DNA of 64,000 nt from Candidatus Obscuribacter phosphatis. GTDB taxonomy: Bacteria > Cyanobacteriota > Vampirovibrionia > Obscuribacterales > Obscuribacteraceae. Position 1 is the first letter of the stretch. Each line of letters opens with the position of its first letter. The notes under the pieces were generated by a model, which did not search any database, was not told where the DNA came from, and saw only the letters and a list, made by a program, of their open reading frames with translations. Location: positions 54,477-118,476 of the forward strand of contig MOYA01000004.1 of NCBI GenBank assembly GCA_001899315.1, read 5' to 3'. A program made the position numbers and the translations under genes. Of this stretch, positions 15,915 through 50,552 are shown one piece after another.

Positions 15915-15963
15915 TGTTTTGTCCTCTCTAGAGAAAGTACCGGGTTGAAAACAGGGGCGAGGC

Positions 15964-15983
15964 AATAACCGATATCGGTTATT
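15964..15983. promoter_or_regulatory. perfect 20-bp palindrome AATAACCGATATCGGTTATT (copy 1)
   Basis: Self-complementary. Lies 50 nt upstream of the gltS-like start (15914) and downstream of the pepN-1 stop (16117). Identical core at 30583-30602. Confidence 0.7.
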
Positions 15984-16116
15984 CAAAAAACTGACTGAGC
16001 AGTTTTCTTTCGCCGATAGGTCATGCCGGCCCCTGTTTTCGGTTACGTCAATTGCTTGGCTTGAGCCGATAAGCTTCAACGCTTAGGCACTTCCTCTTGG
16101 AAAAACCTATTCGTCT

Positions 16117-19017
16117 TTAGCCCACCGGCTTTTCGCCGCCGTTAGAACTGGGGACGGTCACAGAAGTCTGGTCCGCTGCCGGACCCTTCTGAGCTTCCCC
16201 GGAATTGTTGTCGGTTTCAGACTGGCCATTTGCGGTCTGCCCTTCCACCGCAGTCTTGGAAAGAGCGCCGGAAGCACCCTCCTTCACTTCGGGAGGGATG
16301 CAACCGTGCGCATCGGCCGGAAGCAGGTAGTTGACCAACGCCTCTTTCTCAGCATCGACGGCCTGCCGCAGCAGAACATTGATGCGCAGCTGTTCCAGAC
16401 CCTGGGCCAGCTGCATGCGAGTGGTCTCCACCGGATGCGCTTCGAAGAAAGCCTTGATGTCGGCTTCCTGCTCGGCGGTATCGAGAGCGCTGAGGCTGCC
16501 GAAGAGGCGGCCGATCATGCTCTCGGGCCACATGCTCTTGAGCTTGGCCCAGTTCTCCTTGATCACCTCCCAGGTACGAGCGCTCGAGGCCTCGCGAGCC
16601 AAAAGCGACCGCAGGAAGAAAGCAGCGTCCTGGACGCGGATACCGCCACCGATGACCAGGTTGAGCGAACGCTCCACCAGAGCCTTGTCGCCGAAGCGAG
16701 TGAGCAAGAACATGAAGCGCTCCTGCTCCTGCGGAGAAGCAGCGGTCTGACGCAGCTGGTCGAACTCGTCGTAGAGAGCAGCATCGCCGTTGCGCGCCAG
16801 CACGCCGAGGAAGGCGTCGAACATGTCGCTATCCACCGAAGCCGGATCTTTCTTCCAGGCTTCGTAGGCTTCGCGAGCCTTGACCTTGATCGGCTCATAG
16901 TTGCCGACGATGCCGAGGGTGCGCACCACCTGCGTGCGCAGTTCCATGCGCTTGGTGTCGCCCTTGTCTGCCGCGGCGTCGAAGCCGAGCTTCTTGATGA
17001 GCGGCTTGAAGAGCGAGCGCACCTTGCCCGCCACCGCCTCACGCGCCGGACCGGTGAAGAGCCCGTGCAGGTGAGTGAGAGCATCGGCGATGCAAGCCCA
17101 GACATTGGGATCTTCGCTGCCGCCCATGTAGTCAACCAGCTTGAGGAACTCGCTCACCTTGACCTGGCCGGCGCGAGTGGCGCTCCAGGTGTCGTTGAGC
17201 AGGTTGAACTGTTCCACCGGACCCATGGCCTTCTTGAGCACGGGCAGCAGCTTGCCGAGCAGTTCGGACGAGTAGTTGACACGGAAGAAGCCATCGCCGA
17301 AAGCGTTGACCACGACCCATTCCATGTTCTCGCCCACATAGACGACTTCCTCCGCCTTGTTGAGGACGAAGGACTGTTCCACCAGCGCGCCTTTGCACAT
17401 GGCGCGGATCTTGACCGGGATGGGCCAGATGGGCGACTTGCCGTCCCGCGCCAGAACCTTGAATTCCTTCTGGCTCAGACGCACAAAGCCCGGCATCTCG
17501 GCAGCTTCCACCTTGAGGATGGGATGACCCGAGGTGAAGACCCACTTGTTCATGATCTCCATCACCGAGATATTGACGCCGACCTTGCGGCAGCCCTCGT
17601 CGAGAGCGCCCCAGAAGTCGTCGCCGACCGTGTTGCCGAGATGGTGACGCTTCAGATAGATGCGCACACCTTCGCGGAAGGCATCGGCACCGATGAACTG
17701 CTCGATCATGCGCAGAACGCTGCAACCCTTCTCGTAAGAGATCAAGTCGAAGATCTCGTCGATCTGGAAGGGGTTGTCCACCGCCACCTGGATGGGATGG
17801 GTGGAATGAAGCTGGTCGAGGTCGAAGGCGCTGGCCCGGGAGGCAGCGAAGGTCTCCCAGGTCTTCCACTCGGGGAACATGGCGTCGACACCCATGTTTT
17901 CGAGCAGGGTGGCGAAGCTCTCGTTCAGCCAGAGGTTGTCCCACCAGTCCATGGTGGCGTCGTCGCCGAAGCGCATGTGCACCAGTTCGTGCACGACCAC
18001 GTGGGCAACCCGCTCACGCTCCTGCTGGGTGGCAGTGGCCTCGTCCAGCAAAAGATCGGTCATGCGATAGATGATGCAGCCCAGGTTCTCCATGGCGCCG
18101 GCCGCGAAGTCGGGCACAGCGATGAAGTCGATCTTGTCGTCACCGATGTACTTGGTCTGGCAGTAGTCTTCCAGCCAGCCATAGGCGAAGGCACCGACCC
18201 GCTGAGCGAACTGCAGCTGATGCTCGCTGCCCGGGATGGTCCAGAAGCTCAGCTCCACGTCGCGCACCTTGACCGTGCCGCCCAGCGCCAACTCACCAGC
18301 CATGAAAGCCAGGTAGTAGGTGGACATCTTGGGCGTGGTGGCGAACTCGACCCGCTTGAGCAGGCGCGGCTCGGCGTGACCGTGGAAGTGACCGCGCTCG
18401 ACCAGCTCATGCGGCGTCTCCACCGACATGGTCGACTCGCTCACCGGCCGCATGCAGGACAGCGCCTGGTAGCCGTGGGGCACATTCAGGGTCACCTTGA
18501 AGGTGGCCTTCATGTTGGGCTCGTCGAAGCAGGGGAAGGCGCGGCGCGCATCGGTGGCTTCGAACTGGGTGGTGGCGATGACGTGCTCCTTGCCGCTCTC
18601 GTCCTTCCAGACGCTGCGGTAGAAGCCCTTGAGCTCGTCATTGAGCGTGCCGGCGAAGTTGAGCTTGAGGCGCCAGGCACCCTTGCCCACCCGTCCGTTG
18701 AACTTGAGGGTGGAACGCTGCAGAGCTTCGTCGGAAGTGACCTCGGCAGCGAACTCGGTGCCATCGGCGTTCTCCACCGTCACCTTGCCGAGCTTGAGGT
18801 CCTTGGTATTGATGAGAATTTCCGCGGTCGGCGAGAGCACATCGATGTCGATGGCCACCGAGCCGAAGAAGGTCAGGTGTTCAAAGTCGGGCGTGAGCTC
18901 AAGGTCGTAGTGACGAGGCAGAACGTGACGGGGCAGACGATACTTGTCCCCCGTAGCCACCGCCAATGCAAGACCATTGAAGCTACCCTTGTGTTTGCAG
19001 TTTCGCAACATGCACAT
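16117..19017 (-). CDS. pepN: M1 family aminopeptidase N (GC-rich copy)
   Basis: AAGGAG SD. GAMENLGCIIYR, HELVHMRFGD-x-WLNESFA (HExxH-x18-E), an ERAP1-like C-terminal region, and a low-complexity tail. Confidence 0.9.
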   Translation of the reverse strand: MCMLRNCKHKGSFNGLALAVATGDKYRLPRHVLPRHYDLELTPDFEHLTFFGSVAIDIDVLSPTAEILINTKDLKLGKVTVENADGTEFAAEVTSDEALQRSTLKFNGRVGKGAWRLKLNFAGTLNDELKGFYRSVWKDESGKEHVIATTQFEATDARRAFPCFDEPNMKATFKVTLNVPHGYQALSCMRPVSESTMSVETPHELVERGHFHGHAEPRLLKRVEFATTPKMSTYYLAFMAGELALGGTVKVRDVELSFWTIPGSEHQLQFAQRVGAFAYGWLEDYCQTKYIGDDKIDFIAVPDFAAGAMENLGCIIYRMTDLLLDEATATQQERERVAHVVVHELVHMRFGDDATMDWWDNLWLNESFATLLENMGVDAMFPEWKTWETFAASRASAFDLDQLHSTHPIQVAVDNPFQIDEIFDLISYEKGCSVLRMIEQFIGADAFREGVRIYLKRHHLGNTVGDDFWGALDEGCRKVGVNISVMEIMNKWVFTSGHPILKVEAAEMPGFVRLSQKEFKVLARDGKSPIWPIPVKIRAMCKGALVEQSFVLNKAEEVVYVGENMEWVVVNAFGDGFFRVNYSSELLGKLLPVLKKAMGPVEQFNLLNDTWSATRAGQVKVSEFLKLVDYMGGSEDPNVWACIADALTHLHGLFTGPAREAVAGKVRSLFKPLIKKLGFDAAADKGDTKRMELRTQVVRTLGIVGNYEPIKVKAREAYEAWKKDPASVDSDMFDAFLGVLARNGDAALYDEFDQLRQTAASPQEQERFMFLLTRFGDKALVERSLNLVIGGGIRVQDAAFFLRSLLAREASSARTWEVIKENWAKLKSMWPESMIGRLFGSLSALDTAEQEADIKAFFEAHPVETTRMQLAQGLEQLRINVLLRQAVDAEKEALVNYLLPADAHGCIPPEVKEGASGALSKTAVEGQTANGQSETDNNSGEAQKGPAADQTSVTVPSSNGGEKPVG

Positions 19018-19144: not shown

Positions 19145-21841
19145 TTAGCTTCGCGCTCCGACCAATCCGGTCAGAACACTCTCACTGAGATTCTTCTCTT
19201 CACGCTCACGCAGTTTGACATTGATGTCGAGCTGCTCGAGCGCTTGAGCCACAGCCATTTCGCCTGATTTGACAGGGTGCGCGGCAAAGAAAGATCTGAC
19301 ATCTTTGGCTAGTTCCGGCTTGTCGAGTGACGACACAGCCGAAACCATTCTGACCACTCCGTTTTCGGGATAGCGGTCCACCATGGTCTGCCAATTTTCT
19401 TTCAAAAACCGCCAGGCGTCGCTGCCTGCCTCTTCGTTGCTCATGAGGGCAGCGAAGAGGTAGGGAGCGTCTTGGGTGCGCACATCGTCGCTCAAACAAG
19501 CATCGATGGTGCGCTTCAACAGGGCTTTGTCACGGAAGCGCGCCAAAGCGAACAAGAAGCGCTGCACTTCTTGCGGCGAAGTAGCAGCTTTTGAGAGGGC
19601 GAGGAAATTATCGTAAGCCTTGCCTTCACCATGATAGGCAGTGATGGAAACCACTGCCGGCACTAGGTCGGCATCTAACGTGGCTCTGTCTTTGCACCAG
19701 CTCTCGAATAGTTGCATACCTTTCTGGGACAGATCTTTGTCTTCGCCGATGGTGCCCAAGGTAGAGAGCAAGGTGCTTCTCAGCTGCTTGGTCTGCACAG
19801 TCTCAGCCGAGCCCTGGGCAGCATGCAGACCGAGCTTATCAAAAGCCGGTCTAGCTAGTTTTCTGATTAGCCTGGCCATACTAGCCCGCGCTTCAGAGCC
19901 CACCGCAGTGAGACTATTGAGGTGTCCCAGGGAAGCAAGAACGATAGCCCAGACGTTGGGGTCGTTTTCGCTTTCGAAGACCTGGATGAGATTGAGGTAG
20001 TCGGAGGCAGGCAATATACCGGCTCTTACACAAGCCCAGGCATCGTTGACCAGGTTGAATCTCTCAATGCTGGAGAGTTTATCGCCGGGTCCGCCGTTCT
20101 TTGTAAGCAGCGAGGTCAGCTGTCTGTCATAGGTGACCCGGTAAAATCCGGAGCCGCCTGCATTAAGCACTACCCAAACCGCTTCGCCGCCAAGTTCCAC
20201 ATCCTTTGATTTCTCTTCCATGAGAATGCGTTTCTCGATCAGCTTGCCGTCTTTGAGCAAAGCCCGCAGACTAAGCGGAATCGGCCAGGTTGTCTCTTCT
20301 TTATTTGCTGAACCAGCTTGAGCAGTCTGGCTTTGCTTAAGGAACTTGAAGGGCGACTGCTTGAGAGCGAGCTTGCTGACGGTCTCACCGGTGCCCGCGG
20401 CAGATGCTTCCACCACTGGATGTCCAGGAGTGAAGACCCATCTATCCATGATTAAGCGCACCGGTTCGGCTTCTTTCAGACCTTCATGGCGGGCTTTGTT
20501 CTGACAGGCTTCTTCGAGAGCATCCCACAAATCGTGGGTCTCGGTGTTGCCATAACTGTGTTTCTTCAGATAGGCAGCAATGCCCTTTCTGAAGGTTTCA
20601 GCACCGATGAACTCGTGAATCTGGTAGAGAACCGAGCAGCCCTTCTCATAAGAAATGACATCGAACATTTCAGCTGCTTCATCGGGATGATTGACCGGAC
20701 ATTCGATCGGGTGGGTGCTGTTGAGAGCATCCACTCTGGAGGCAGCGGCACGGGAGAGACCGAAATCATTCCAAATCTCCCACTCGGGCTTCCATTTTGA
20801 TAGACAGAGATTTTCCATAAAGGTGGCGAAACTCTCGTTCAACCAGAGTCCATTCCACCAACCCATGGTGACAAGGTCGCCGAACCACATGTGGGCCAGT
20901 TCGTGCATGACCACTTCAGCAACGCGCTTGCGTTCAGCGTGGGTAGCATGAGCTTCGTCCAATAGAAGCGCGGTTTCACGATAGGTGATTAGACCGAGGT
21001 TCTCCATTGCTCCCGAGGCGAAGTCGGGTATGGCGATATGGTCAATTTTCTTGCCGCCCGGATAGGGAATCTCGAAATATTTCTCGTAATAGTCGATGGC
21101 AAAAGCCGAGACATCGAGCGCAAAGGAAGTCAGCTTTTCTTTGCCGGGCACCGACCAGATGCGCACTTCGATGCCGTTTACATCGATGGGCTTGCTTGAG
21201 ACGAAGTTGCCGACGCAGAAGCACACCAAATAAGTGGACATCTTCATGGTGCGCTCATAGGTGATGGTCTTCTTGCCACCGGGCGCAGGCTCGGTCTTCA
21301 CGACGGCTCCGTTAGACAAAGCCGTCAACTTTTCATCGACCGTGAGGCGCACATCGAAAGTGGCTTTGAAAGCCGGTTCGTCAAAGCAAGGAAAGGCGCG
21401 CCTAGCATCGGTAGACTCAAACTGAGTAGTGGCGATTGGCTGCTTTTCGCCTTTCTCGTCAACCCAGAAGGAGCGGTAGAAGCCCTTGAGCTTGTCGTTG
21501 AGTGTGCCTTTGAAGCTGGACTTGAGGGTCCATTTACCGGCTGCCAGTGTTTCTGCAAACTGCAGGGTGGCTATCTCGGTTTCTTCGCAGACAGTGACTT
21601 TTGCTTTGTGCTCTTGGCCGCCTGCTTGAATGGCAACAAAACTTTCTATCTCAAGCTCTTTGGCGTTGATGGCGATGCGATTTGTGGCTTGTTCGAGTTC
21701 AATCTCGATTGCTACTTCGCCATCAAAAACAAACTTTGCCAAGTCGGGGGTCAAGTGAATGTCGTAGTGACTTGGTTTGACGAAACCATCCAGTCTGAAG
21801 CCGGTTTCTTTGCCGACTGAGCCGTTGCCTGTGTGCATCAT
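19145..21841 (-). CDS. pepN: M1 family aminopeptidase N (moderate-GC copy)
   Basis: GAGGTAA SD. GAMENLGLITYR, HELAHMWFGD-x-WLNESFA. Collinear with the neighbouring copy (KGFYRS.W.DE.G, IATTQFE.TDARRAFPCFDEP). Confidence 0.9.
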   Translation of the reverse strand: MMHTGNGSVGKETGFRLDGFVKPSHYDIHLTPDLAKFVFDGEVAIEIELEQATNRIAINAKELEIESFVAIQAGGQEHKAKVTVCEETEIATLQFAETLAAGKWTLKSSFKGTLNDKLKGFYRSFWVDEKGEKQPIATTQFESTDARRAFPCFDEPAFKATFDVRLTVDEKLTALSNGAVVKTEPAPGGKKTITYERTMKMSTYLVCFCVGNFVSSKPIDVNGIEVRIWSVPGKEKLTSFALDVSAFAIDYYEKYFEIPYPGGKKIDHIAIPDFASGAMENLGLITYRETALLLDEAHATHAERKRVAEVVMHELAHMWFGDLVTMGWWNGLWLNESFATFMENLCLSKWKPEWEIWNDFGLSRAAASRVDALNSTHPIECPVNHPDEAAEMFDVISYEKGCSVLYQIHEFIGAETFRKGIAAYLKKHSYGNTETHDLWDALEEACQNKARHEGLKEAEPVRLIMDRWVFTPGHPVVEASAAGTGETVSKLALKQSPFKFLKQSQTAQAGSANKEETTWPIPLSLRALLKDGKLIEKRILMEEKSKDVELGGEAVWVVLNAGGSGFYRVTYDRQLTSLLTKNGGPGDKLSSIERFNLVNDAWACVRAGILPASDYLNLIQVFESENDPNVWAIVLASLGHLNSLTAVGSEARASMARLIRKLARPAFDKLGLHAAQGSAETVQTKQLRSTLLSTLGTIGEDKDLSQKGMQLFESWCKDRATLDADLVPAVVSITAYHGEGKAYDNFLALSKAATSPQEVQRFLFALARFRDKALLKRTIDACLSDDVRTQDAPYLFAALMSNEEAGSDAWRFLKENWQTMVDRYPENGVVRMVSAVSSLDKPELAKDVRSFFAAHPVKSGEMAVAQALEQLDINVKLREREEKNLSESVLTGLVGARS

Positions 21842-22573: not shown

Positions 22574-23593
22574 ATGACCAAGCGTACCCTGGACGGCTTC
22601 ATCCCGTCCGACCTGCTGCACGACATCGCGCGGCTCAACCCGAACGCCTCGCTGTCCTTCATCGCCACCATCCTCGAAACCCAGAAGATCGCTCAGGCTG
22701 CTGCCTCCGGCCGCATCCCCTACCGCTTCGCCGCCGGCAAGGCCGAGCGCCAGATCTACGACGCCAAGAACACGACGCGCCTGCCCGGCACCCGTGCTCG
22801 CTTCGAAGGCGACAAGGCCACCGGCGACAAGACCACCGACAATGCCTACGACTACCACGGCGGCATGCGCGACTTCCTCAAGCAGGAATTCGGCTGGAAC
22901 TCCATCGACGGCAACGGCATGAACCTGGTGGGCACCGTCCACTACGGTCGCAACTACAACAACGCCTTCTGGAACGGCTCCAGCATGACCTACGGCGACG
23001 GCGACGGTGTCATCTTCGTCACCTTCGTCACCGCCAACGTGGTCGGCCACGAGCTGGCGCACGGCGTCACCGAGCACACCTCGGGTCTGGACTACTACGG
23101 CGAGTCCGGCGCGCTGAACGAGAGCTTCTCCGACGTCATGGGCGCCTGCTACGAGCAGTGGCTCAACAAGGAGACGGTCGACAAGGCGCACTGGCTGATC
23201 GGCAAGGGCATCTTCGGCCCGACCATCAAGGGCGTCGCCCTGCGTTCGATGATCGCCCCGGGCACCGCCTACAACGATCCGAAGCTGGGCAAGGACCCGC
23301 AGCCCGACCACTACAGCAAGCTCTACCGCGGCTCGGGCGACAACGGCGGCGTGCACATCAACAGCGGCATCCCGAACAAGGCCTTCGCCCTGTTCGCCAA
23401 CGCCGTGGGTGGCCACTCCTGGAAGGAGCCGGCGCACATCTGGTGGGAGTCGAACTGCGGCACCAACCGCGTCACCGGCCGCGCCAGCATCGCCGACTTC
23501 GCCCGCAAGACGGTCGAGAACTGCAACACCATGGCGCCCGCTCTCGTGGCCAAGCTGAAGAAGGCCTGGGACGACGTGGGCATCAAGGTCTAA
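22574..23593 (+). CDS. M4 (thermolysin-family) metalloprotease, protealysin-like short form
   Basis: VVGHELAHGVTEHTSGL (HExxH) and GALNESFSDVMG (third zinc ligand). No signal peptide. Short N-terminal segment GFIPSDLLHDIARLN. Confidence 0.85.
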   Translation: MTKRTLDGFIPSDLLHDIARLNPNASLSFIATILETQKIAQAAASGRIPYRFAAGKAERQIYDAKNTTRLPGTRARFEGDKATGDKTTDNAYDYHGGMRDFLKQEFGWNSIDGNGMNLVGTVHYGRNYNNAFWNGSSMTYGDGDGVIFVTFVTANVVGHELAHGVTEHTSGLDYYGESGALNESFSDVMGACYEQWLNKETVDKAHWLIGKGIFGPTIKGVALRSMIAPGTAYNDPKLGKDPQPDHYSKLYRGSGDNGGVHINSGIPNKAFALFANAVGGHSWKEPAHIWWESNCGTNRVTGRASIADFARKTVENCNTMAPALVAKLKKAWDDVGIKV

Positions 23594-23848
23594 GCCGTCT
23601 CTTCGGACCGCAAGACCGGAAGTTCGGAGCCTAAAACCGCACTTCAAACAGCATCTCTTTAGATGCACTCGCTGGGCGGGACGGTCAGAACTAATGATGT
23701 GACAGCACATCGGTTCGGCCGCTTCCGCCCGGCGATTTTTGTATGGACCCGACAACCGCCGTGGCGCTGAATCTACCGCGGCGGTTGGCGGCCCCTCAAC
23801 TTATCGATCACCCATCGGTATCGGTATAACGAACCAAGGGAACAAACA

Positions 23849-26065
23849 ATGTCTCCATCCAAAATGGCCATGAAGCTGATGCGTTCATGGAAACTTCTAC
23901 CGGAGATCTCCGCCACCGAGCGCCAGGCGCTGGAGGCCGGTGATGTCTGGATCGACGGCGATATCTTCGCCGGTAAGCTGCGCTTCAAGCAGGTGCTCGC
24001 CAACCCCTATGGCGGGCTGACCAAGGAAGAGCAGGAATTCATCGATGGTCCCTGTCAGGAACTCTGTGCCATGGTCGACCCGTGGCAGGCCTACCTGACC
24101 CGTCGCATCCCCGACGACGCCATGGCCTACCTCAAGGCACAGGGCTTCATGGGTCTGATGATTCCCAAGGAGTGGGGCGGCAAGGGCTTCTCGCGCCTGG
24201 CCATCTCCACCATCATGGGCAAGCTCATGCCCCACTGCAGCCAGGTGGCCACCGTGGTCATCATCGCCAACAGCCTGAGCGCCGCCGAACTGCTCATCCA
24301 CTACGGCACCCCCGAGCAGAAGAAGCACTACCTGCCCCGTCTGGCCGACGGCACCTATGTGCCCTGCTTCGGTCTGACCGAGCTCACCGCCGGCAGCGAC
24401 GCCGAGAGCATCAAGGCCACCGCCCATGCCTTCCGCGACAGCGACGGCAGCATCAAGCTGCGCTGCAACTTCGAGAAGCGCTACATGACGCTCGGCTCGA
24501 TCGCCAACATCGCCACGGTGGCCTGCAAGGTGATCGACCCCGACAATCTGCTCGGCAAGGGCGAGAACGTCGGCATCACCACCATCCTGGTGCACAAGGG
24601 CACGCCGGGCTTCTACAACGGTGACCACCACATGCCCATCGGCGGCGGCTTCGAAAACGGCCCCCTGATCGGCAAAGACGTGGTCGTCGGTCTCGACAAC
24701 ATCATCGGCGGCGCCGAATGCGCTGGTCGCGGCTGGCGCATGCTCATGGAGCAGCTGGCAGGCGGCCGCGGCATCTCGCTGCCGGCTGGTGCCATCGGCG
24801 GCATGAAGATGGCCACCACGGCCACCGGTGCCTATTCCATGGTGCGCAGCCAGTTCGGCCTGGCCATCGGCAAGATGCAGGGCGTGGAAGAGCGTGTCGG
24901 TCGCATGGCGGCCCTCACCTATCTCTTCGAAGCCTCGCGCGTCTTCCTTTGCACCGCCATCGACAACAACATCAACCCGCCGGTGACGTCGGGCATGCTC
25001 AAGGCCTACAGCACCGACTGGTCGGCGCGCGTGGTCGGCGACGGCATGGATGTCTTCAGCGGCGCCGGCGTCATGCAGGGTCCGAACAACATCCTCGGCC
25101 TGCTCTACCAGTCCATCCCGGTGGGCATCACGGTGGAAGGCGCCAACATCATGACCCGCACCTTCCTGGTGAACGGTCAGGGTGCGGTGCGCTGCCACCC
25201 CTACTCCCAGCGCATGGTCGAAGCCGTCGAGAAGGACGACCCCCGTCTCTTCCGCAACACCCTCTTCGGCTGGGTCGGTCACGTGGTCCTGGGCGCGCTG
25301 CGCACTGGTGTGCACAGCGTCACCCGCGGCCATCTGATCAGCGTGCCCAAGGTGGCACCGCAGACCAAGACCTACTACCGCCGTCTGGGCTGGGCTGCCG
25401 CTCGTTTCGGTCTGCTCACCGACCTGGGGCTTCTGCTGGTCGGCGGCAACCTCAAGAAGGAAGGTCGCCTGAACGGTCGCTATGCCGACGCCTTCGCCTG
25501 GATCACTCTGGGCGTGGCTGCTCTGCGTCGCTTCGAAGCAGAAGGCCGGCGTCCCGAAGACCTGCCCTTGGTGCAGGCCAGCGTGGAATTCGCCCTGAAC
25601 GAGGTGCAGAAGGCCTTCGAAGGCATCTACGCCAATTCCCGCATGCCGGTGGTGGGCTTCTTCATGCGCACCCTCGGTCTCTTCGGCCTGCGCATCAACC
25701 CGCTTTCGCTGGGCACCAGCGACAAGCATTCGCACGGTGCGGCGCGTGCCATCCAGAACTTCGACGAGCAGTTCCTGCGTCTCAGCGAGGGTGTCTACAT
25801 CCCCGCCGAAGACAAGCCGGCGCTCGGTCGTCTGGTCAAGGCTTTCCGCCTCAAGAGCGAAGCCGCCAGCCTCTTCGACAAGATTTCCGCCGCCCAGAAG
25901 CGCAAGCAGCTGCCCCGCGGCGGCGCCGACTTCGCGCTGGTGAGCGAGGCCCAGGCAAGCGGTGTTCTCACCGCCGCCGAAGCCCAGCAGGTCAAGGAAG
26001 CGCTCGCCGCTTGCCTGACTGCCTGCGAAGTGGACGTCTTCAAGGACGAGCACTACTACCGCTGA
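23849..26065 (+). CDS. fadE: large acyl-CoA dehydrogenase, FadE type
   Basis: Collinear by eye with E. coli FadE after its TM region: EAGDVWIDGDIF, LTKEEQEFIDGP, IPKEWGGKGFS, HYGTPEQKKHYLPRLADG, CFGLTELTAGSDA. Confidence 0.85.
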   Translation: MSPSKMAMKLMRSWKLLPEISATERQALEAGDVWIDGDIFAGKLRFKQVLANPYGGLTKEEQEFIDGPCQELCAMVDPWQAYLTRRIPDDAMAYLKAQGFMGLMIPKEWGGKGFSRLAISTIMGKLMPHCSQVATVVIIANSLSAAELLIHYGTPEQKKHYLPRLADGTYVPCFGLTELTAGSDAESIKATAHAFRDSDGSIKLRCNFEKRYMTLGSIANIATVACKVIDPDNLLGKGENVGITTILVHKGTPGFYNGDHHMPIGGGFENGPLIGKDVVVGLDNIIGGAECAGRGWRMLMEQLAGGRGISLPAGAIGGMKMATTATGAYSMVRSQFGLAIGKMQGVEERVGRMAALTYLFEASRVFLCTAIDNNINPPVTSGMLKAYSTDWSARVVGDGMDVFSGAGVMQGPNNILGLLYQSIPVGITVEGANIMTRTFLVNGQGAVRCHPYSQRMVEAVEKDDPRLFRNTLFGWVGHVVLGALRTGVHSVTRGHLISVPKVAPQTKTYYRRLGWAAARFGLLTDLGLLLVGGNLKKEGRLNGRYADAFAWITLGVAALRRFEAEGRRPEDLPLVQASVEFALNEVQKAFEGIYANSRMPVVGFFMRTLGLFGLRINPLSLGTSDKHSHGAARAIQNFDEQFLRLSEGVYIPAEDKPALGRLVKAFRLKSEAASLFDKISAAQKRKQLPRGGADFALVSEAQASGVLTAAEAQQVKEALAACLTACEVDVFKDEHYYR

Positions 26066-26134
26066 CGCGGGTTTTGTGAACCTGAACAACCGCTGACGCG
26101 GGTTTCTGAACAACCGCTAGGCGGGTTTCTGAAA
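26058..26134 (+). repeat. three direct repeats of about 24 bp, ACCGCT(G/-)A(C/G)GCGGGTTT(C/T)TGAA
   Basis: Copy 1 overlaps the fadE stop codon. Copies at about 26058, 26088 and 26112. Confidence 0.7.
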
Positions 26135-26138
26135 GAGC

Positions 26139-26171
26139 GCGGCCGAGAGCAATCTCGGTCGCGTTTTCTTT
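26139..26171 (+). terminator. rho-independent terminator
   Basis: Stem GCGGCCGAGA / TCTCGGTCGC (one mismatch), loop GCAA, then GTTTTCTTT. Confidence 0.65.
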
Positions 26172-26210
26172 CGCCTCCATTGAGTCAAACAACTAGAAAA
26201 GGAGCCTTTT

Positions 26211-28445
26211 ATGGCAAAATCCAATGCCTCTACTCCTGTGATCGTTCTCAACCTCGGTGAAACCGGCGACAAGGGCGACGACCGTCGTCCCCATGGTCAC
26301 AAGGGCGGCTGCCGTCCCCATGTGGTCATCTGCCCCGGCTATGGCGCCGAGAATTTCCCCTTCCCCAACGAGGAGACCCTCGTGGTGCGTGCCTTGGCCC
26401 GCATCAAGAAGAAGCAGGCTGCGGCTCGCGCCGCTCGCGCTTCTCGCACGGAAGATGTCGGCACCGGTATCGACAACGGTATCGACAACGAGGACCTCAA
26501 CCACCCTTTCGGCGAAGGAGGTGACCACGGCAGCGACCATGATGACCACGGTTGCGCCACCTCCCCCCACTGCCAGGGCCGGCATCCCGAGATGGAGTTG
26601 ACCGACGACGAAGTCGGCGATTCCGGGCTGCTGCGCACCTATGTTCCGGGCAGCCCCACCCTGGGCCGCATCCCCGCCAAGCGCCCGGCCGGCATCATCC
26701 CGCAGCTCGAGAAGGCTCGTGAAGCCGCTGTCGACGCCACTCTTCTGGTGGCCGCCGGTGGTCTGCGCGAACTGCTCGAAGACGGCAAGTATGACGCCAT
26801 CGTGGCCGAGCGCTTCGATGAGCAGGCCGACAAGGTGAGCTGGGCCCGTGAGAACATGGACCCCAAGTACCTGCCGGCCATCGACAGCCTGGAAGGGCAG
26901 CTGAACAAGCTGCGCCGGGTCTATCTGGCTGCGCTGCCTCGCACCCTCGACGGTCTGCGCGCCCAGAACCCCGGCACGCCCGAGTACCGGCTGCTCGATG
27001 CCGCCATCGAAGTGCTGGACGAAGAGCTGACGCCTATCATCAACGTCCTGCGTATCTGGACGGACGCTTTCGGCCAGCAGCGCAGCGGCAAGTACAAGGA
27101 GCTGGACGCCGTCGTCTTCTCGGTCGAGCAGGCGCACCACCTCTTCGAAGGCAATGTGGACGCCAGCTCCATGAGCGCCGAGACCAAGAACCGCCTCAAG
27201 ACCCGCGTCTACGGCGTGGGCAATGTCTATGTGGCGCGTTTCTCGGGCGAAGGTCCGGCCACGCTGCCCGGCACTCGCGGTCCCATCGGTGCTCATGCCA
27301 TCGAAGTGCCGCACGACGAGCGCAACATCATCACGCTCATGCTCATCCTCTACATGCACGAGTTCCGTCACGACATCTTCCACGACGTGGAAGGTCTCGG
27401 CGACGAGCTCAGCGCCGTGGTGGCCAAGGCGGTGCTCGATGCCCACGAAAAGGGCGAGCTGAAGCTGAGCAAGAACGCAGTCAAGATCGGAAAGCAGCAG
27501 GTGCCTCTGGCCAACCTCCTGGTCAAGCTCTTCGTCGACACCATCGGCGAAGTGGACGCGGACATTTCGGGCGGCGTGCTGCTCGGCGGTCCGGCCTACC
27601 TGTACAACATGCTCTCCACGTTCTCGGCCTTCAACTCGAAGCGCAAGAACATCTTCAACACGCCCAAGCTGCTGCGCACCGAGTCGTTCTACGAACTGAG
27701 CCAGGTGGGCAACGGTCAGGTCTCCCTCACCTTCCTGCCGCATCCGCCGGACTACATCCGCGCCTACATCGTTGCCGCCGCTCTCGACGAGATCGGCTTC
27801 AGCAAGGAAGCGCGTCAGTGCCGTGCACTCGCCGATCAGGGCGTCGGTTTCGACAACATTCCGGAGTACATCTCCTGGAAGTCGACCGAAGGCAAGAAGG
27901 AGCACCCCGAGATTCAGATCCCGGTGGCCGACATCAAGGCAGTCGCACCCATCGTGGCGCGCGCCCTGATTCGCACGCCGCTCAAGAGCCTCGGTGGTGC
28001 CAGCACCATCGACATCATCAACTGGACTCCCGAGCGCGAAGCCAAGGCACAGCTCCTGGCTCAGATGCTCATGGAAGGCAAGTCGGAGCTGCCCACCGAC
28101 AAGGGTGACATGCACGTCACCTACGTCATCTCGGCAGCGACGCTGGCTTACTGGGGTCTCTGCAAGTCGGGCTATCAGCCTCGCAAGGCAGCCGCCATTG
28201 TCGAGGACAACGCCCTGAAGATGATCGACCAGGTGCGCGACCGCTTCGACAAGGAGATGGCGCGCCTCAAGGCGGAAGCGGCGGAGCAGGCCGAACTGGC
28301 TGCCGATGCCGCTGCCTCCGGCGAAGCCAATCCCAATGGCGAAGCCAATCCCGCCGAAGGTGCAGCCGCCTCGGTCGAGAGCGGTGAAACCGTCGACGAG
28401 GACGCTGGCCCTGAATCCGGGGGCGGTGAAGGCACCGGCAGCTGA
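26211..28445 (+). CDS. orphan 744-aa protein with HExxH zincin motif
   Basis: AAGGAG SD. LILYMHEFRHDIFHD (H383-E-x-x-H387) and GEVDADISGG with E447 60 residues later. His/Asp-rich N-terminal patch; Ala/Glu-rich C-terminus. No signal peptide. Confidence 0.7.
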   Translation: MAKSNASTPVIVLNLGETGDKGDDRRPHGHKGGCRPHVVICPGYGAENFPFPNEETLVVRALARIKKKQAAARAARASRTEDVGTGIDNGIDNEDLNHPFGEGGDHGSDHDDHGCATSPHCQGRHPEMELTDDEVGDSGLLRTYVPGSPTLGRIPAKRPAGIIPQLEKAREAAVDATLLVAAGGLRELLEDGKYDAIVAERFDEQADKVSWARENMDPKYLPAIDSLEGQLNKLRRVYLAALPRTLDGLRAQNPGTPEYRLLDAAIEVLDEELTPIINVLRIWTDAFGQQRSGKYKELDAVVFSVEQAHHLFEGNVDASSMSAETKNRLKTRVYGVGNVYVARFSGEGPATLPGTRGPIGAHAIEVPHDERNIITLMLILYMHEFRHDIFHDVEGLGDELSAVVAKAVLDAHEKGELKLSKNAVKIGKQQVPLANLLVKLFVDTIGEVDADISGGVLLGGPAYLYNMLSTFSAFNSKRKNIFNTPKLLRTESFYELSQVGNGQVSLTFLPHPPDYIRAYIVAAALDEIGFSKEARQCRALADQGVGFDNIPEYISWKSTEGKKEHPEIQIPVADIKAVAPIVARALIRTPLKSLGGASTIDIINWTPEREAKAQLLAQMLMEGKSELPTDKGDMHVTYVISAATLAYWGLCKSGYQPRKAAAIVEDNALKMIDQVRDRFDKEMARLKAEAAEQAELAADAAASGEANPNGEANPAEGAAASVESGETVDEDAGPESGGGEGTGS

Positions 28446-28634: not shown

Positions 28635-30032
28635 ATGAAAGAGAATAAGTGGAAGAACTTCAAACCCAGATACGTTTGGGGCGGATTGATCGTCCTTCTC
28701 GGTCTGGGCATACTTGTCTCGAACCTGCTCGGCTTCGTCGCCGGCGGCGGTTCCAGCAAGCTTCCCGACCAGACTTTTTCATCCAAACCAGGTACAACGG
28801 TATATCTGAAGGCACCGAAATCCGGCGAAACAGTGCGTATCGTGCGCACCGACTCATCGGGTTCGACGCGCACCTACATGCGCATCGAATACAAAGACGG
28901 TCGCTCCGCAGTGGTTTCCTTCTCGAACAACAAGGTCTCCACTTACCGAGAGTACTATGCTCCCACGAAGGAGGAGCTGCTCAAAATCCAAGAGCAAGCC
29001 AAGAATGCCACCCCCGGTGTCAACTCGGCAGCTCAGTCGAATCCCACAGCTGAAGCCACTGACGCCGATCTGCCCCTTCGCAGACTGGCTCGCATCGTCG
29101 AACTGGCCAAGGACGGCAAAACCGTCAACGCTGAATACACCTATTTCGCCAACGGACGACTGAAAGAAGTCACCGTTCTCTCCGCCCTGGGCGACCTGGT
29201 GAGCACTACCTATTTCGAAAACGGAACTGGTATCGAGCGCATCGGCGTCTATGCCAAGGACCAGAACGGCGCTCTCGTATCAGAACAGGTCTTTGCCATC
29301 GGAGGTCGTCTGGTCGAGAGAGTCAGTGTCTCTGGCTATAACGGACTTCAGCGCGATTTCTTCGACGCCAACGGCATTCGTTACCGTTCGATCACCTACG
29401 GCTCCTGGACGTCGGAAATCACCGACTACACAGCCGATGGCAAGTCGAAAAAGATGGTCACGGCCTACGGCTATTCCGACGTCTCGGTCACCACCTATGA
29501 CGAAAAAACCGGTAAAGCACTAATGGAGAAAAGCTATCCAAATCAGAGCGATGCCGTCATCGTCCGCTACTTCGACCAGAGCAACAGCCCGAACAACTAC
29601 GGCGCCAGAGCCTTGGTGCAGCAGCGTTGGGTCAAGCTCGACAAAGCGATTCCCCAAGACCAGGTTGGTGTTGTCTCCGACGGCTACGTGCTGGATTCCA
29701 TCACCGAGTTCTATGAAGGCACTTACAACACCAAGCGTGAGCTGACCTTCTACCCCGGCGGCAAAGTGGTCAAATCGGCCGAAATCCGCAAACCGGCTTC
29801 CAGCTGGGGCACCTTTACTCGGCGCTCCTATCGTCTAGACGGTACGCTGGAAAAGGTGGAGGAAGTCGAATATAACCGCGTCAAGAGCCAGCAGCTTGTA
29901 ACCGGCGACAAGACTACCAGCGAAAGTCTGGACGGCCTGATCAAAGCTGTTTCCATTCTGCCGATTCTGACCAAGAACGGACCCGATAGTCCGGTTCGAA
30001 GCTCTAAAGCCCTCGAACTGAAGTTGGACTAA
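28635..30032 (+). CDS. membrane-anchored repeat protein (MORN-variant/YwqK-like beta-hairpin repeats?)
   Basis: ORF 28593..30032 trimmed to ATG 28635. TM helix YVWGGLIVLLGLGILVSNLLGFV. Recurrent Y(F)xNG..-type repeats (YFANGRLKEVTV, YFENGTGIERIGVY, FFDANGIRYRSITY). Confidence 0.55.
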   Translation: MKENKWKNFKPRYVWGGLIVLLGLGILVSNLLGFVAGGGSSKLPDQTFSSKPGTTVYLKAPKSGETVRIVRTDSSGSTRTYMRIEYKDGRSAVVSFSNNKVSTYREYYAPTKEELLKIQEQAKNATPGVNSAAQSNPTAEATDADLPLRRLARIVELAKDGKTVNAEYTYFANGRLKEVTVLSALGDLVSTTYFENGTGIERIGVYAKDQNGALVSEQVFAIGGRLVERVSVSGYNGLQRDFFDANGIRYRSITYGSWTSEITDYTADGKSKKMVTAYGYSDVSVTTYDEKTGKALMEKSYPNQSDAVIVRYFDQSNSPNNYGARALVQQRWVKLDKAIPQDQVGVVSDGYVLDSITEFYEGTYNTKRELTFYPGGKVVKSAEIRKPASSWGTFTRRSYRLDGTLEKVEEVEYNRVKSQQLVTGDKTTSESLDGLIKAVSILPILTKNGPDSPVRSSKALELKLD

Positions 30033-30806: not shown

Positions 30807-32132
30807 TCAGCGTTTCATGCATATAGAAAGCACTGTTCCCGTCCTCAGCTTACGCATTCTGTCAGAACCCACATAACCTCGAGCCAGACAACTCGCAAAA
30901 ACATAACCCCTAACCTCGGACCTCTCAGATGGACCTTGAAGTTTAGAAGAGAATTGCGGGCAAGAAGAGAAGAAATTGCTGCCAATAATCGGACGAGGCA
31001 AAACAAACTGCGTTGAATTAGCAATGATGTGCATCAAGCCGCTGTATACGTAGAGATACTTTCTACTAATACGTCGACAATAATCTACGAGCAGCTCCAT
31101 AAACTCAAAGCAAGCCTTCTCAAGATTCTCTCGACTTTCACTTTGTACTCTTCCTGAACAAAGAGAACTTTGACACTTTGGCTTGCCGATAGCTATAGAG
31201 CAATCTGCTAAGCCTGATGAGTCAGAATTTCCGCCGTCTGGCTCCGCAACCCTGATCTTGAGTTTGCATCCCGGAAGAGACTCTATCAATCCATAAATTT
31301 GAAGCATGGCTATAGTTGAGTTAACTTCTGCAGTTGAGACATCCAGTTTGGCGCAAATCGAATCAATTTCATCACATCCGTTAGCAATAACAGCTAGCAC
31401 TTTAGATTCGAGTTCCGAAAGGTTTTCGCCAGAAGATGACTGATGAGGTTCAATCTGACTTGGGTGTCCAGTAATATTGGAAACACTAACGGCCGAGCTA
31501 GAAGCAGGCGCCTCACTAAAGTCGTGAACTTCAAATTCAACATCGACAGACTCTTCTTGACTCTCACAATTGGAGCGCTGCTCGTATAAGCGTTCGGCAT
31601 TTTCTTCATAGCAAGGATGCAGCCACATTGGTGAAGCAAGGCTTCTTTTGGCAAAAACAAAACTGAAGTGCGATGAGCTAAACTCCTTACATTCGCTGCA
31701 CTTAGCTGCCGCAGCTGCGTCAAGAATTGAGCGAGTTAAATTCAGGGCGGAAGAGTACGCAAGGCCAGTCAAAGCGCACAAGAAACTAGAATTGACTATA
31801 ACTCCATGTTCGTACAACCAAATGGCTGAAAACCAGGCTCTTATATTCCTTACGCGCTCGAAAAATGTACCAGCAGTCAGGCTCATGCGTCTTTTACAAA
31901 TCAAGCATTTGAACTCTCTAGAACCTTCTTGAATCTCAATTTGGTCCGAAAGACAAAGACGACAATATAAAAAACCACCACTAGTCAAGCTATCAATCAA
32001 GTCTCTCCAGCAAGTCTCAGGGTCTGGATAGACTTCATAGAAGGAACGCCACACACTACCTACATATTCTATTTTGTCTCTAGAATCGCATCGTTTGGCT
32101 ATCTCAACTAAGCCTTCTTCTAGTGGTCTCAC
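30807..32132 (-). CDS. IS1595-transposase-derived protein lacking DDE core; Zn ribbon plus DprA-like winged helix (paralogue A)
   Basis: ORF 30807..32270 trimmed to GTG 32132 (AAGGAGG 7 nt upstream). CRLC...CLIC..SLTAGTFFERVRNIRAWFSAIW..LTGLAYSSALNLTRSIL; central acidic linker plus LSELESKVLAVIANGCDEIDSICAKLDVSTAEVNSTIAMLQIYGLIESLPG; C-terminal RRISRKYLYVYSG. Confidence 0.7.
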   Translation of the reverse strand: MRPLEEGLVEIAKRCDSRDKIEYVGSVWRSFYEVYPDPETCWRDLIDSLTSGGFLYCRLCLSDQIEIQEGSREFKCLICKRRMSLTAGTFFERVRNIRAWFSAIWLYEHGVIVNSSFLCALTGLAYSSALNLTRSILDAAAAAKCSECKEFSSSHFSFVFAKRSLASPMWLHPCYEENAERLYEQRSNCESQEESVDVEFEVHDFSEAPASSSAVSVSNITGHPSQIEPHQSSSGENLSELESKVLAVIANGCDEIDSICAKLDVSTAEVNSTIAMLQIYGLIESLPGCKLKIRVAEPDGGNSDSSGLADCSIAIGKPKCQSSLCSGRVQSESRENLEKACFEFMELLVDYCRRISRKYLYVYSGLMHIIANSTQFVLPRPIIGSNFFSSCPQFSSKLQGPSERSEVRGYVFASCLARGYVGSDRMRKLRTGTVLSICMKR

Positions 32133-32208
32133 TTGATCGTCCTCCTTACTCCTATAAGTAAGAACGTAATTTCGAGAGAAAAAGTTCAAAAGATTGAGAT
32201 AAATTCTG

Positions 32209-32228
32209 AAAAACCGATATCGGTTATT
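32209..32228. promoter_or_regulatory. 20-bp palindrome copy 3 (AAAAACCGATATCGGTTATT, one mismatch)
   Basis: 77 nt upstream of the paralogue A start. It lies inside the spurious N-terminal extension of the raw ORF. Confidence 0.7.
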
Positions 32229-32640
32229 CCGAAAATCAAGAAACCAAAAAACAAAATTCTTTTGGTCCAAGGCAAACCAGATTTCATTAAATCTGCTTGA
32301 CAGCGTGCCAGCTATTCAGTAGTCTTGCCTTGAGACATTTGTCTCGTTTTGCAGGAATCACTTACCAAACCTACCAATCCAATCATCTTCATGCTTAAGT
32401 GCTTGATGGTGTGTTCCCTCGGCTGATAATGATAAGGCTCCTAGCTTTTGCTGGATCTATCAAATAGGCAGGCAACACCCCTTTCAACTCATTCAGCATA
32501 GTACCCAGCCTCTCAAAAACTTGAGGCATTGACGATAGCACTTGCACAGTTGTCAATTGCTTCTACCGGAAAAATATTGGGTATGAACTGACTTAGTTGA
32601 AAACAGGCATCTTAAGGTGCAGAATTGCCAGGAGAATGTC

Positions 32641-33849
32641 ATGAACTTAGTCAAGAAACAGCGCGAGAACCGCTATCGACTGGGAGAGCTTTTTCTAGAA
32701 ACTGGTCTAGTGGACGGTTCAGCAATTTCTGAAGGACTTTCGATTTCTAAGAGAACATCCTTTCCCATAGGACGCGTTCTCGTAATGACAGGATGGCTGG
32801 ATGATCATGATGTGAATTGCGCCTTGGAACTGCAAAATCTTCTCAGAGAAGGCACCATAGACAATCGTCTCGCCGCTGACCTGCTCAGATTCTGCCACCT
32901 CAACAAAGTAGACATAAATGAATCCTTCAGACTTAACGGCATTACAAGCTCCGGAGAATCTCCTCAAAGTAGACTAGGCAGGCTTTTCTTTGCTGCCGGA
33001 ATCGTTGATGAGAACCAACTAGCACAAGCTGGTCGAGAAGCTCAGCGGCACGACATGACGCTAGGAAGCGCGCTTCTCATGCTCCGCTTCGTATCTCAAA
33101 AGACACTCGAAGGTGCACTCAATTTACAGGTGATGCTCAGAGATGGCAAAGTCACCTTCCCCGAAGCTCTTGCATTTTGCAAAGAAATGCACGAGCGTCA
33201 AGTTAGCCTCAGAGAGGTACTAGGTGATAACGGCAAACTCGTTCGTTCTAACAGTGCCGCTCCAAGAATCGGAGAGTTCCTAGTTGCTGCGCAGTTAGTT
33301 AAGAATACTGAAGTTCTTACTGCTTGCGAAATCGGCACAGAGGAAGATAACAACATTGGCAGAGTCCTACTAAGCAGAGGACAACTTTCAGAATTGGTTT
33401 TGGAAGCTGCTCTCAAGCTCCAGAATATGATGCAGTCGAGAGTCTTTACATACAGAAGGGCGGTTAAGCTTCTCAGACTCGTCTATAAGCTAGGTGCACC
33501 GCTAGAACAAATAATTGAAGAATCGCAAGCCCTTGATGATGTTTTCAAACTACTAAGAAGAGCCGCAATAGTCCCTGAGAAGATTGTGCGAGATGTTGCC
33601 TGCGAAATTGTTGACTTTGAAGACACCGTCGCCGAAGCCCTCCTCTCAAGGGGATATATCAATCCTATTCATGCTCGCATAGGTCTAGCCTGCTTAGAGC
33701 GCATCAGAAATGGAGAAATATGTGAAGACAAGGCAGCATTTCTCATCTACCACTGCTGCAACAAACCCGGACAAGAAATGGAAATGTTTAGCCGCATTAA
33801 TTGGTCAGAACTTCGCCGCCTGCAGCTCAGACAGGACTTACTAGTATAG
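32641..33849 (+). CDS. protein of three tandem T2SSE_N/MshEN-like modules
   Basis: ORF 32617..33849 trimmed to ATG 32641 (AGGAG SD). Three modules of about 90 aa, each built as 24-aa motif, 5-aa spacer, 24-aa motif (details in findings). Confidence 0.7.
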   Translation: MNLVKKQRENRYRLGELFLETGLVDGSAISEGLSISKRTSFPIGRVLVMTGWLDDHDVNCALELQNLLREGTIDNRLAADLLRFCHLNKVDINESFRLNGITSSGESPQSRLGRLFFAAGIVDENQLAQAGREAQRHDMTLGSALLMLRFVSQKTLEGALNLQVMLRDGKVTFPEALAFCKEMHERQVSLREVLGDNGKLVRSNSAAPRIGEFLVAAQLVKNTEVLTACEIGTEEDNNIGRVLLSRGQLSELVLEAALKLQNMMQSRVFTYRRAVKLLRLVYKLGAPLEQIIEESQALDDVFKLLRRAAIVPEKIVRDVACEIVDFEDTVAEALLSRGYINPIHARIGLACLERIRNGEICEDKAAFLIYHCCNKPGQEMEMFSRINWSELRRLQLRQDLLV

Positions 33850-46873: not shown

Positions 46874-47290
46874 TCAGACTTTCACAGCCTTTTTGTTCAC
46901 CAGCTTCGGTCCCTCCACGAGCTTCAAAACCGGGCAGCGACCGGCGGTGCGCTCCATGGCGGTGAGGTCGGCGGCGCTGAGATTACCGCTGGCCTCGATG
47001 AGCTCTTCGATGAGAGGGATCTTCTTGGTGGCGTCATTGGGATCGGCCACCTCGCTGTAGGTGACCTTGACGCTCAGAGTCTGGATGTCCCAGTTACGGC
47101 TCTTTGCCACCATCATCAGTGTCTGCACGGTGCAGCTACCGATTGCGGCGAGCAAAAGCTCTTTGGGAGTCGGACCCAGGGATGTGCCGCCCACCGACTT
47201 ATCCTGGTCGGCAATGACAGTGAAGGCGCCGGCGCTGATGTCCACCTTGTAGGTGTGCCCGGCTGCCAGAGTGCATGTGGCTTGCGTCAT
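46874..47290 (-). CDS. OsmC/Ohr-family peroxiredoxin-like protein
   Basis: GGTSLGPTPKELLLAAIGSCT ... TAGRCPV (two conserved Cys contexts). The start abuts the PPK2 stop. Confidence 0.8.
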   Translation of the reverse strand: MTQATCTLAAGHTYKVDISAGAFTVIADQDKSVGGTSLGPTPKELLLAAIGSCTVQTLMMVAKSRNWDIQTLSVKVTYSEVADPNDATKKIPLIEELIEASGNLSAADLTAMERTAGRCPVLKLVEGPKLVNKKAVKV

Positions 47291-47291
47291 A

Positions 47292-48200: not shown

Positions 48201-48229
48201 AGGCTTGCCTCCCGGAGGAAGCTACCGCG

Positions 48230-50056: not shown

Positions 50057-50552
50057 GGTTACTCCTACTTGTTTGAGCATTGAGAGTTGAGAGACAGTTG
50101 ACCCAAGCACAGCCACCCTTCCGAGTTTCGGACAGTTAAGACCCACCTTGACGCTCAGACATGCCAAAGCCACCGACCCACAAGTGAGTCGGCGTCAGCG
50201 GCAGAAAGAGACGGTAGGTCTTAAGAGAAGGTGTGTGAGACTTGGATCACCAGGAAAATATGTAAGAAAGAACTTCTGGACACTACGTATTAAGCGCCCT
50301 TATATACAAGTCATGAGATCAGGTATTAGTAAGCGTTTAGATCTTGTCTGACCAAAAACTGGCAAAAGAAGACAGAAAGACTCATTAGAGCCAAGAAATG
50401 TTTATGACAGGGTGTTAGCGCGGCTGGGCCAGTCTAGCCAAGTACTGGCAAAAAACCGAGCGGACCTACCTCGGTATTGATGTCGATACAGCGACAAAGA
50501 AAAAAGATGGCCAGGACTAGAGCAAAGCAAATCCAGAACCACTGGGCGAAAG

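Follow-up and report, generated by a model that had tools for sequence, protein, structure and literature searches.

A probable zinc metallopeptidase family of the glutamate-zincin type, restricted to Obscuribacterales and encoded near protealysin-like M4 and M1 peptidase genes

An HExxH motif, a downstream ExxxD motif, and a distal His/Arg pair together make up the classical constellation of gluzincin peptidases such as thermolysin and neprilysin. Protealysin-like proteases (PLPs) of the M4 family are intracellular enzymes that are stored as inactive precursors, and in Serratia the PLP shares an operon with the gene for the inhibitor emfourin (PMC6778150, PMC9505478). Here, we analyzed a 64,000-nucleotide window (the whole stretch of DNA under study) of contig MOYA01000004.1 from Candidatus Obscuribacter phosphatis, in which an open reading frame (ORF) at 26211-28445 (+) runs unbroken from its ATG through the stop codon and encodes a protein of 744 residues, hereafter called the target. 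A Shine-Dalgarno-like AAGGAG, read from the sequence, lies 6 nt 5' of this ATG (26199..26204, +), and the start Met is supported by an alignment of 44 core family members, in which the homologue N termini line up from the same Met. We propose that the target is probably a zinc metallopeptidase of the glutamate-zincin type that represents a new, lineage-restricted family, with metal binding and catalysis predicted from conserved motifs and from a structural model.

Three catalytic-type motifs carry this proposal. HEFRH at residues 383-387 (27357..27371, +) holds the two proposed zinc ligands H383 and H387 as well as the proposed general-base glutamate E384. E447-V-D-A-D451, an ExxxD motif (27549..27563, +), contains the proposed third zinc ligand and the Asp proposed to orient the first His, and H511-P-P-D-Y-I-R517, of the form HxPxxxR (27741..27761, +), provides a putative transition-state-stabilizing His and a putative substrate-binding Arg. 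E447, within GEVDADISGG, stands exactly 60 residues past H387; H511 follows E447 by 64 residues, and R517 follows H511 by 6. The first two motifs and their spacing had been pointed out in an earlier reading of this DNA from its letters (the sequence-only reading), and the translation agrees with it. In the core family, H383, E384, F385, R386, H387, E447, D449, A450, D451, H511, P513, D514, and R517 are invariant in all 44 members. In a superfamily alignment of 39 sequences, the most distant of which are 18% identical to the target, invariance is limited to six columns, namely H383, E384, H387, E447, D451, and R517, and H511, G460, and L594 are kept in at least 90% of the sequences. The HExxH residues are invariant in 44/44 core and 39/39 superfamily sequences aligned, and one subfamily of ~500 residues carries HExxxH. 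Lack of HExxH conservation among homologues, which the sequence-only reading had named as a refutation, was thus looked for and not seen. A simple pattern of the three motifs in order was found in 173 of the 191 family sequences with 450 or more residues, and the His-to-Glu spacing equals 60 in 139 of these 173. The 18 sequences that fail the pattern belong almost entirely to the HExxxH subfamily, which still aligns at all three motifs. Because the motif columns are the sole survivors at 18% identity and keep their ordered spacing, we conclude that the motifs form the functional core of the protein and that chance is ruled out. Judged by sequence, the six invariant residues together with H511 match the gluzincin catalytic set.

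Obscuribacterales are a poorly studied, non-photosynthetic lineage, sister to the cyanobacteria. The target had been called an orphan, which does not hold: a word-indexed search returned no fewer than 112 homologues (38-97% identity), every one named "hypothetical" and, where labeled, from Candidatus Obscuribacter, Obscuribacterales, or Melainabacteria, and an exhaustive hidden Markov model search of 1.84 billion representative proteins recovered only 196 relatives at E <= 1e-3, none of them annotated and nearly all from Obscuribacterales. When each GTDB species was represented by a single genome, the scan yielded 56 family loci, essentially all in metagenome-assembled genomes (MAGs) of Obscuribacterales, some of which have two or three of these loci. 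The superfamily branches into the ~700-residue core family, which contains the target; a second paralogue set of ~600-700 residues; a subfamily of ~500-550 residues with HEVGGH (HExxxH), likewise from Obscuribacterales; and a few proteins of ~1000 residues with HELGH or HEFGH plus NENTAD. Pfam (at E <= 0.1), NCBIfam, PHROGs, and PADLOC gave no family match for the target. At E <= 0.01, Pfam found no domain in 10 distant relatives, and at E <= 5 it gave no usable match in 39 diverse family members, with one noise-level M13 match (E 0.26). Sequence searches of the PDB returned nothing relevant, either by phmmer with the target or with the family profile, which had 0 matches at E <= 10, and our literature search found no work linking Obscuribacter or Melainabacteria to peptidases. 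The target is a member of a real, conserved, previously unannotated protein family that is restricted to Obscuribacterales.

Some family-bearing records (loci L019, L061, L031, and L059) include the titles "Flavobacterium psychrophilum," "Planktothrix sp.," and "Proteobacteria bacterium." These contigs look mis-binned or mislabeled, because they show 34-60% identity to Obscuribacterales proteins and, in L031 and L059, have neighbors in common with them. In the ~1000-residue relatives P0237, P0241, P0248, P0251, and P0257 (L007), all encoded on short contigs, the catalytic-type HExGH/NENTAD domain is fused to a long N-terminal region of Gly/Ala-rich hydrophobic helices and low-complexity linkers, and three members show weak Rho_N-like matches.

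A full-length AlphaFold2 model of the target, built from the 44-sequence alignment, reached a predicted local distance difference test (pLDDT) score of 72. It consists of a disordered N terminus (residues 1-6, 18-46, and 84-161 below pLDDT 50), a helical domain of medium confidence at residues ~167-312, and a high-confidence C-terminal domain; when residues 330-705 were predicted again alone, the pLDDT was 88.9 and the predicted template modeling score 0.87. The putative catalytic domain (residues ~339-705; 27225..28325, +) is a confident mixed alpha/beta model and is the portion common to the distant subfamilies. As in glutamate zincins (clan MA(E)), the conserved HExxH is placed within a long helix (368-392), here directly after a beta-strand (361-367), and the conserved Glu on a downstream helix (445-459), at the start of which E447 and D451 are found; H511 lies between a strand and the helix that bears R517. 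This predicted placement fits a gluzincin, with each i/i+4 pair on one helix face. In Foldseek searches against the PDB, the full-length model reached a best E value of 0.8 and the domain model one of 0.1, with TM-scores below 0.2 and no M13 or M4 structure among the top 50, and the domain model found no neighbor in BFVD (best E 0.2; TM-score below 0.2). The only peptidase or zincin in the top 50 was ZMPSTE24 (E ~5.5), retrieved by the full-length model only. As modeled, the fold of the catalytic domain appears to match no solved structure.

The sequence-only reading had compared the target with M13 peptidases (neprilysin/PepO), citing a His-to-Glu spacing of ~59 residues. We used the neprilysin C-terminal sequence, which agrees with PDB 1dmt, only as bait to gather PF01431 proteins, of which 35 were aligned. 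The resulting M13 alignment conserves H42/E43/H46, E105/D109, and H170/R176, with spacings of 59/65/6 versus 60/64/6 in the target family, so the value cited is correct (59 from H46 to E105). H170 and R176 are nearly invariant, and N1, A2, Y4, and C205...W208 are conserved. Thus, M13 and the target share one order, HExxH followed after 59-60 residues by G-E-x-x-A-D-x-x-G and after another 64-65 by H-x-P-x-x-x-R, as well as local sequence, with GEVDADISGG and HPPDYIR in the target corresponding to GENIADNGG and HSPGNFR in M13. Likewise, when the family was compared with the M13 profile by hhalign, the three best non-overlapping local alignments were the three motifs, in one register (offsets 12, 13, and 12). 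In the controls, an M4 profile (35 sequences from fetched loci) aligned HExxH and ExxxD about equally well (10.6% and 1.0%), and an M1 profile aligned HExxH alone; comparisons with a single neprilysin or M4 sequence gave probabilities of 1-3% and had low power.

Other features separate the target from M13. It has no Pfam match to PF01431 or PF05649, the E 0.26 hit mentioned above being the only M13 match and confined to one of the 39 family members, and the family profile retrieves none of the at least 14 M13 sequences present in the PDB. No M13 structure appears in the Foldseek top 50 with the full-length or domain model, although the PDB contains neprilysin, ECE-1, PepO, and Zmp1. The NAYY/NAFY strand motif, the C-terminal CxxW, and the conserved cysteines of M13 are all absent from the target, whose conserved element upstream of HExxH is GPATLPG...AHAIEVP and whose C terminus is a low-complexity tail. 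Whereas M13 has its own N-terminal domain, the target has a disordered His/Cys-rich N terminus followed by a family-specific helical domain; it also lacks a membrane anchor, and its family is limited to one bacterial order. We rejected membership in M13 because Pfam, PDB sequence, and Foldseek matches are missing, as are NAYY, CxxW, and the M13 N-terminal domain, and because hhalign probabilities are below 10%. It had been stated that nothing else in the protein looks like M13; this is right for the NAYY-type motif, which is absent, but incomplete in that it passes over H511-P-P-D-Y-I-R517, which parallels M13 H-S-P-x-x-x-R. Of the suggested M13-type gluzincin, the glutamate-zincin idea survives at the level of motifs, spacing, and predicted helices, whereas the M13 assignment falls; sensitive profile comparison did align the M13 motifs, but at those low probabilities and with no Pfam family. 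The M13-like spacing may stem from common ancestry that is very deep, or from a structural constraint that acts on both families.

A likeness to M4 peptidases of the thermolysin kind is seen in HExxH and in the ExxxD motif of the Glu helix, both of which hhalign aligns, and PLPs resemble the target in having no signal peptide (PMC6778150, PMC9505478). However, the HExxH-to-Glu spacing is ~20 residues in M4 and 60 in the target, and neither a Pfam M4 match nor a fold match was obtained. The order of the distal residues differs too, as the Arg comes before the His in thermolysin.

If the target is a zinc peptidase as proposed, zinc would be coordinated by a His pair from one helix (H383 and H387) and by E447 from another, E384 would serve as the general base that activates water, and D451, one turn past E447, would orient the first His, H383. 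The roles proposed for the distal residues follow those of H711 and R717 in neprilysin. By this analogy, H511 would stabilize the tetrahedral intermediate or transition state, and substrate binding, through the backbone or carboxylate, would fall to R517. Entry to the active site may be controlled by the helical middle domain, and the disordered N terminus with its CCRxH...PGYG...FPFP element may act in latency, in regulation, or as a pro-segment. The family is best described as a new family of a known zincin kind, with no new catalytic principle.

The regions flanking the catalytic domain are conserved to different degrees. Residues 28-52, HGHKGGCRPHVVICPGYGAENFPFP (26292..26366, +), form an N-terminal motif with the consensus CCRxHxVVxPGYGxxxFPFP, in which the core-family alignment shows G43, G45, and P52 without exception and V39 and P42 with few exceptions. 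The motif has low pLDDT in the AlphaFold model, and His/Cys-rich stretches adjoin it in many homologues; it is possibly a small metal-binding or pro-segment element. A His/Asp/Cys-rich patch at residues 98-125 (26502..26585, +) falls inside the disordered linker (~84-161, pLDDT <50). Its position is not kept among core members, and as a feature of composition, His/Cys-rich stretches recur toward the N terminus in 39 of 103 homologues. The all-helical middle domain (residues ~167-312; 26709..27146, +), defined by DSSP helices at pLDDT 61-86, is kept in the ~700-residue core family, with F202, A212, Y238, and P243 among its conserved columns. At the C terminus, an Ala/Glu/Gly-rich low-complexity tail (residues ~690-744; 28278..28442, +) is disordered, with pLDDT <50 at 710-744, and core members keep neither its sequence nor its length. 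The patch and the tail had both been noticed from the sequence, and the model adds that they are disordered. As also noticed, the target has no signal peptide or transmembrane segment, its maximum Kyte-Doolittle mean over 19 residues being 1.31.

Upstream of the target lie two M1 aminopeptidase genes in tandem, identified by Pfam, which encode proteins of 966 residues (16117..19017, -) and 898 residues (19145..21841, -; Peptidase_M1_N, M1, and ERAP1_C). The latter is divergent from an M4 gene, and its position is conserved. This M4 gene (22574..23593, +; Pfam Peptidase_M4 and M4_C) encodes a protealysin-like metalloprotease of 339 residues without a signal peptide, whose best PDB match is 2vqx_A (341 residues, E 2.7e-89), which we take to be the protealysin precursor. 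Between the M4 gene and the target is a gene for a FadE-type acyl-CoA dehydrogenase (ACAD)-like protein (23849..26065, +; Pfam ACDH_C, Acyl-CoA_dh_N, M, and 1). A GltS-like gene with a Glu_synthase domain (13830-16079, -) precedes the M1 pair, and a membrane-anchored, beta-rich repeat protein is encoded downstream of the target (28635..30032, +; the ORF opens at TTG 28593, and the likely start is ATG 28635). No signal peptide or transmembrane segment was found in the M1, M4, and ACAD neighbors or in the target.

To a large extent, this arrangement recurs across the family. By tblastn with the window neighbors, M1 (-) and M4 (+) genes lie upstream of a family member in ~38 of the 56 genome loci, and this extends to members at 33-42% identity; many loci have two M1 matches. 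The ACAD-like gene is present in most loci, is 23-26% identical in some clades, and is absent from the most divergent clade. At ~22% identity, P0180 is encoded directly downstream of an M4 gene in a neighborhood that is otherwise unrelated and has no ACAD gene. The P0215 and P0192 loci have no informative neighbors, and the contigs of P0202 and P0241 are too short for gene context. The pair of M4 gene and family member is the most persistent association observed, which suggests a functional link. Because the gene travels with M4 and one or two M1 genes, its product is likely a step in a non-exported module of protein or peptide degradation or processing. In such a module, the M4 endoprotease would act first, the target enzyme next, and the M1 aminopeptidases last; alternatively, the target may be a partner of M4, for example through mutual activation. 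Our confidence in this pathway role, including the functional link and the class of substrate, is lower than in the zinc metallopeptidase assignment.

In gene order, the locus can be likened to the protealysin-emfourin operon of Serratia proteamaculans, since in both an M4 gene is followed by a conserved partner on the same strand and both products lack an export signal. However, the comparison applies to gene position only: emfourin is described as an inhibitor protein whose binding site on protealysin is the active-site region (PMC9505478), whereas the target has ~700 residues and catalytic-type motifs of its own. Moreover, the ACAD-like gene often intervenes here, and M1 aminopeptidases are linked as well.

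Several further observations concern these neighborhoods. Counting the target, four zinc-peptidase-like genes are clustered in the window, and locus L005 repeats the layout Glu_synthase-M1-M1-M4-target. At the P0180 locus (L065 1-8995), genes with RHS/YD repeats (TEN_YD-shell, DUF6531) and for a HicB-like antitoxin adjoin the pair of M4 gene and family member, a setting reminiscent of toxin and competition loci. The PPL motif known from PLP propeptides has no exact equivalent ("PP[LIVF]") in the N-terminal ~60 residues of the M4 neighbor, where GFIPSDLL at residues 8-15 may be a degenerate counterpart. The beta-repeat protein downstream of the target (MKENKW...) has a short basic tail and one strongly hydrophobic transmembrane helix, LIVLLGLGILVSNLLGFVA (Kyte-Doolittle 2.49), followed by a beta-rich ectodomain with Tyr/Gly/Asp repeats that matched no family with confidence. 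In ~17 other loci, the target homologue is followed by a gene of weak similarity (21-50% identity). Beyond it are encoded a protein of 487 residues (30807-32270, -) whose winged helix is of DprA type and which weakly matches a Csa3-like helix-turn-helix, and one of 410 residues (32617-33849, +) with three MshE-type cyclic di-GMP-binding motifs, which is kept downstream of the cluster in several close relatives (L008, L009, L021, and L032). At 47292-50173 (-), a gene for a PPK2 polyphosphate kinase precedes one for a 647-residue protein, which has a dephospho-CoA kinase (CoaE) domain in its N-terminal part and ~400 further residues without an assigned domain.

The target and the M4 gene had been placed in a common GC-rich block, which our analysis bears out. 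In this block (22574-28445), the GC content at third codon positions (GC3) is 0.95 for M4, 0.86 for ACAD, and 0.81 for the target, compared with 0.39-0.67 for adjacent genes. GC content alternates between 0.42 and 0.66 along the window in kilobase-scale blocks, and other GC-rich blocks, at 14000-19000 and 47000-50000, encode the GltS-like and M1 proteins and the PPK2 and CoaE-like proteins, respectively. The bias is not confined to this genome: in nine others, the target orthologue exceeds its own locus in GC content. We considered recent horizontal transfer as the source of the block and rejected it because of the GC3 effect, the GC-rich orthologues, and the order-wide conservation of the cluster. 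These points argue for gene-specific codon bias, perhaps tied to expression level.

Some of these results weigh against a zinc peptidase acting beside M4 and M1. No Pfam or NCBIfam peptidase family matched, nor did any PDB chain with the family profile, and the hhalign probabilities for the M13 profile were 9.7%, 2.0%, and 0.3%, for short motifs only. As Foldseek found no neighbor and no zincin was in the top 50 for the domain model, a zincin fold is hypothetical. With regard to gene context, a second paralogue class has no peptidase neighbors, and linkage within a single order could in part be inherited synteny.

That the family is a very divergent member or offshoot of the M13 lineage, keeping only the three motifs and their spacing, would account for the near-identical spacings, for the local likeness at the Glu and His/Arg motifs, and for the single register of the hhalign alignments, and the one noise-level Pfam match points the same way. 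We nevertheless find an M13 offshoot very unlikely: PF01431 and PF05649 are missing from the target and from 10 distant relatives alike, the family profile did not retrieve the M13 sequences in the PDB, no M13 structure is among the top 50 Foldseek matches, the NAYY/NAFY and CxxW motifs and the N-terminal domain are lacking, and the low-probability hhalign result was equaled by the M4 control on two motifs. The motifs could also be a chance match with an unrelated role, as amino-acid frequencies lead one to expect, by a rough estimate, HExxH alone in ~2% of proteins as long as this one, and no fold or family evidence ties the protein to peptidases. Survival of the motif columns alone at 18-25% identity, with the spacing fixed in most members, effectively refutes this explanation, and we give it almost no weight.

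HExxH sites occur in non-peptidase enzymes too, and the target may be a metal enzyme with other chemistry, such as an amidase, an esterase, or a peptide-modifying enzyme, perhaps with the ACAD neighbor as its partner and an acyl or peptidyl metabolite as its substrate. The lack of a peptidase fold or family match would agree with this, as would the retention of the ACAD-like gene between M4 and target in most clades even at 23-26% identity. Against it, HExxH, ExxxD, and the distal His/Arg are the classical peptidase set, the NCBIfam models for HExxH-type peptide-modifying enzymes gave no match, and the most persistent neighbor is M4, with ACAD absent from the most divergent clade and beside P0180; we regard other chemistry as unlikely. 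A non-enzymatic role, as a regulator, inhibitor or immunity protein, chaperone, or substrate of the adjacent M4 in an emfourin-like downstream position, would suit an order of M4 gene and family member that holds down to 22% identity, and the long disordered N-terminal linker could be protease-sensitive. The protealysin gene of Serratia is followed by one for a protealysin inhibitor, in whose absence PLP activity is toxic (PMC9505478). However, a pure binder need not keep a textbook catalytic set with its general-base Glu, a protein of ~700 residues with this architecture is unlike a small inhibitor, and paralogues without an M4 neighbor exist, so that a non-enzyme seems to us highly improbable. 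A bolder proposal goes beyond the zinc peptidase assignment. A previously unseen fold may have converged on, or radically remodeled, the HExxH/ExxxD/H...R constellation, and its bearer may be the dedicated partner of an intracellular protealysin-like M4, for example in a mutually activating zymogen pair or in a non-classically delivered proteolytic effector module for competition or predation, with the His/Cys-rich CCRxH segment as a cysteine-switch-like latency element. This proposal is doubtful in our view.

We retain the reading of the target as a probable glutamate-zincin metallopeptidase. If it is an active enzyme, it would define a new metallopeptidase family, possibly with a new fold that bears the classic gluzincin residues. 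Pfam, NCBIfam, and the PDB do not include the family, and annotating it would give a name to several hundred "hypothetical" proteins. In addition, the pairing with M4 offers a handle on the role of the widespread intracellular protealysin-like proteases outside Serratia, whose biology and partners are debated.

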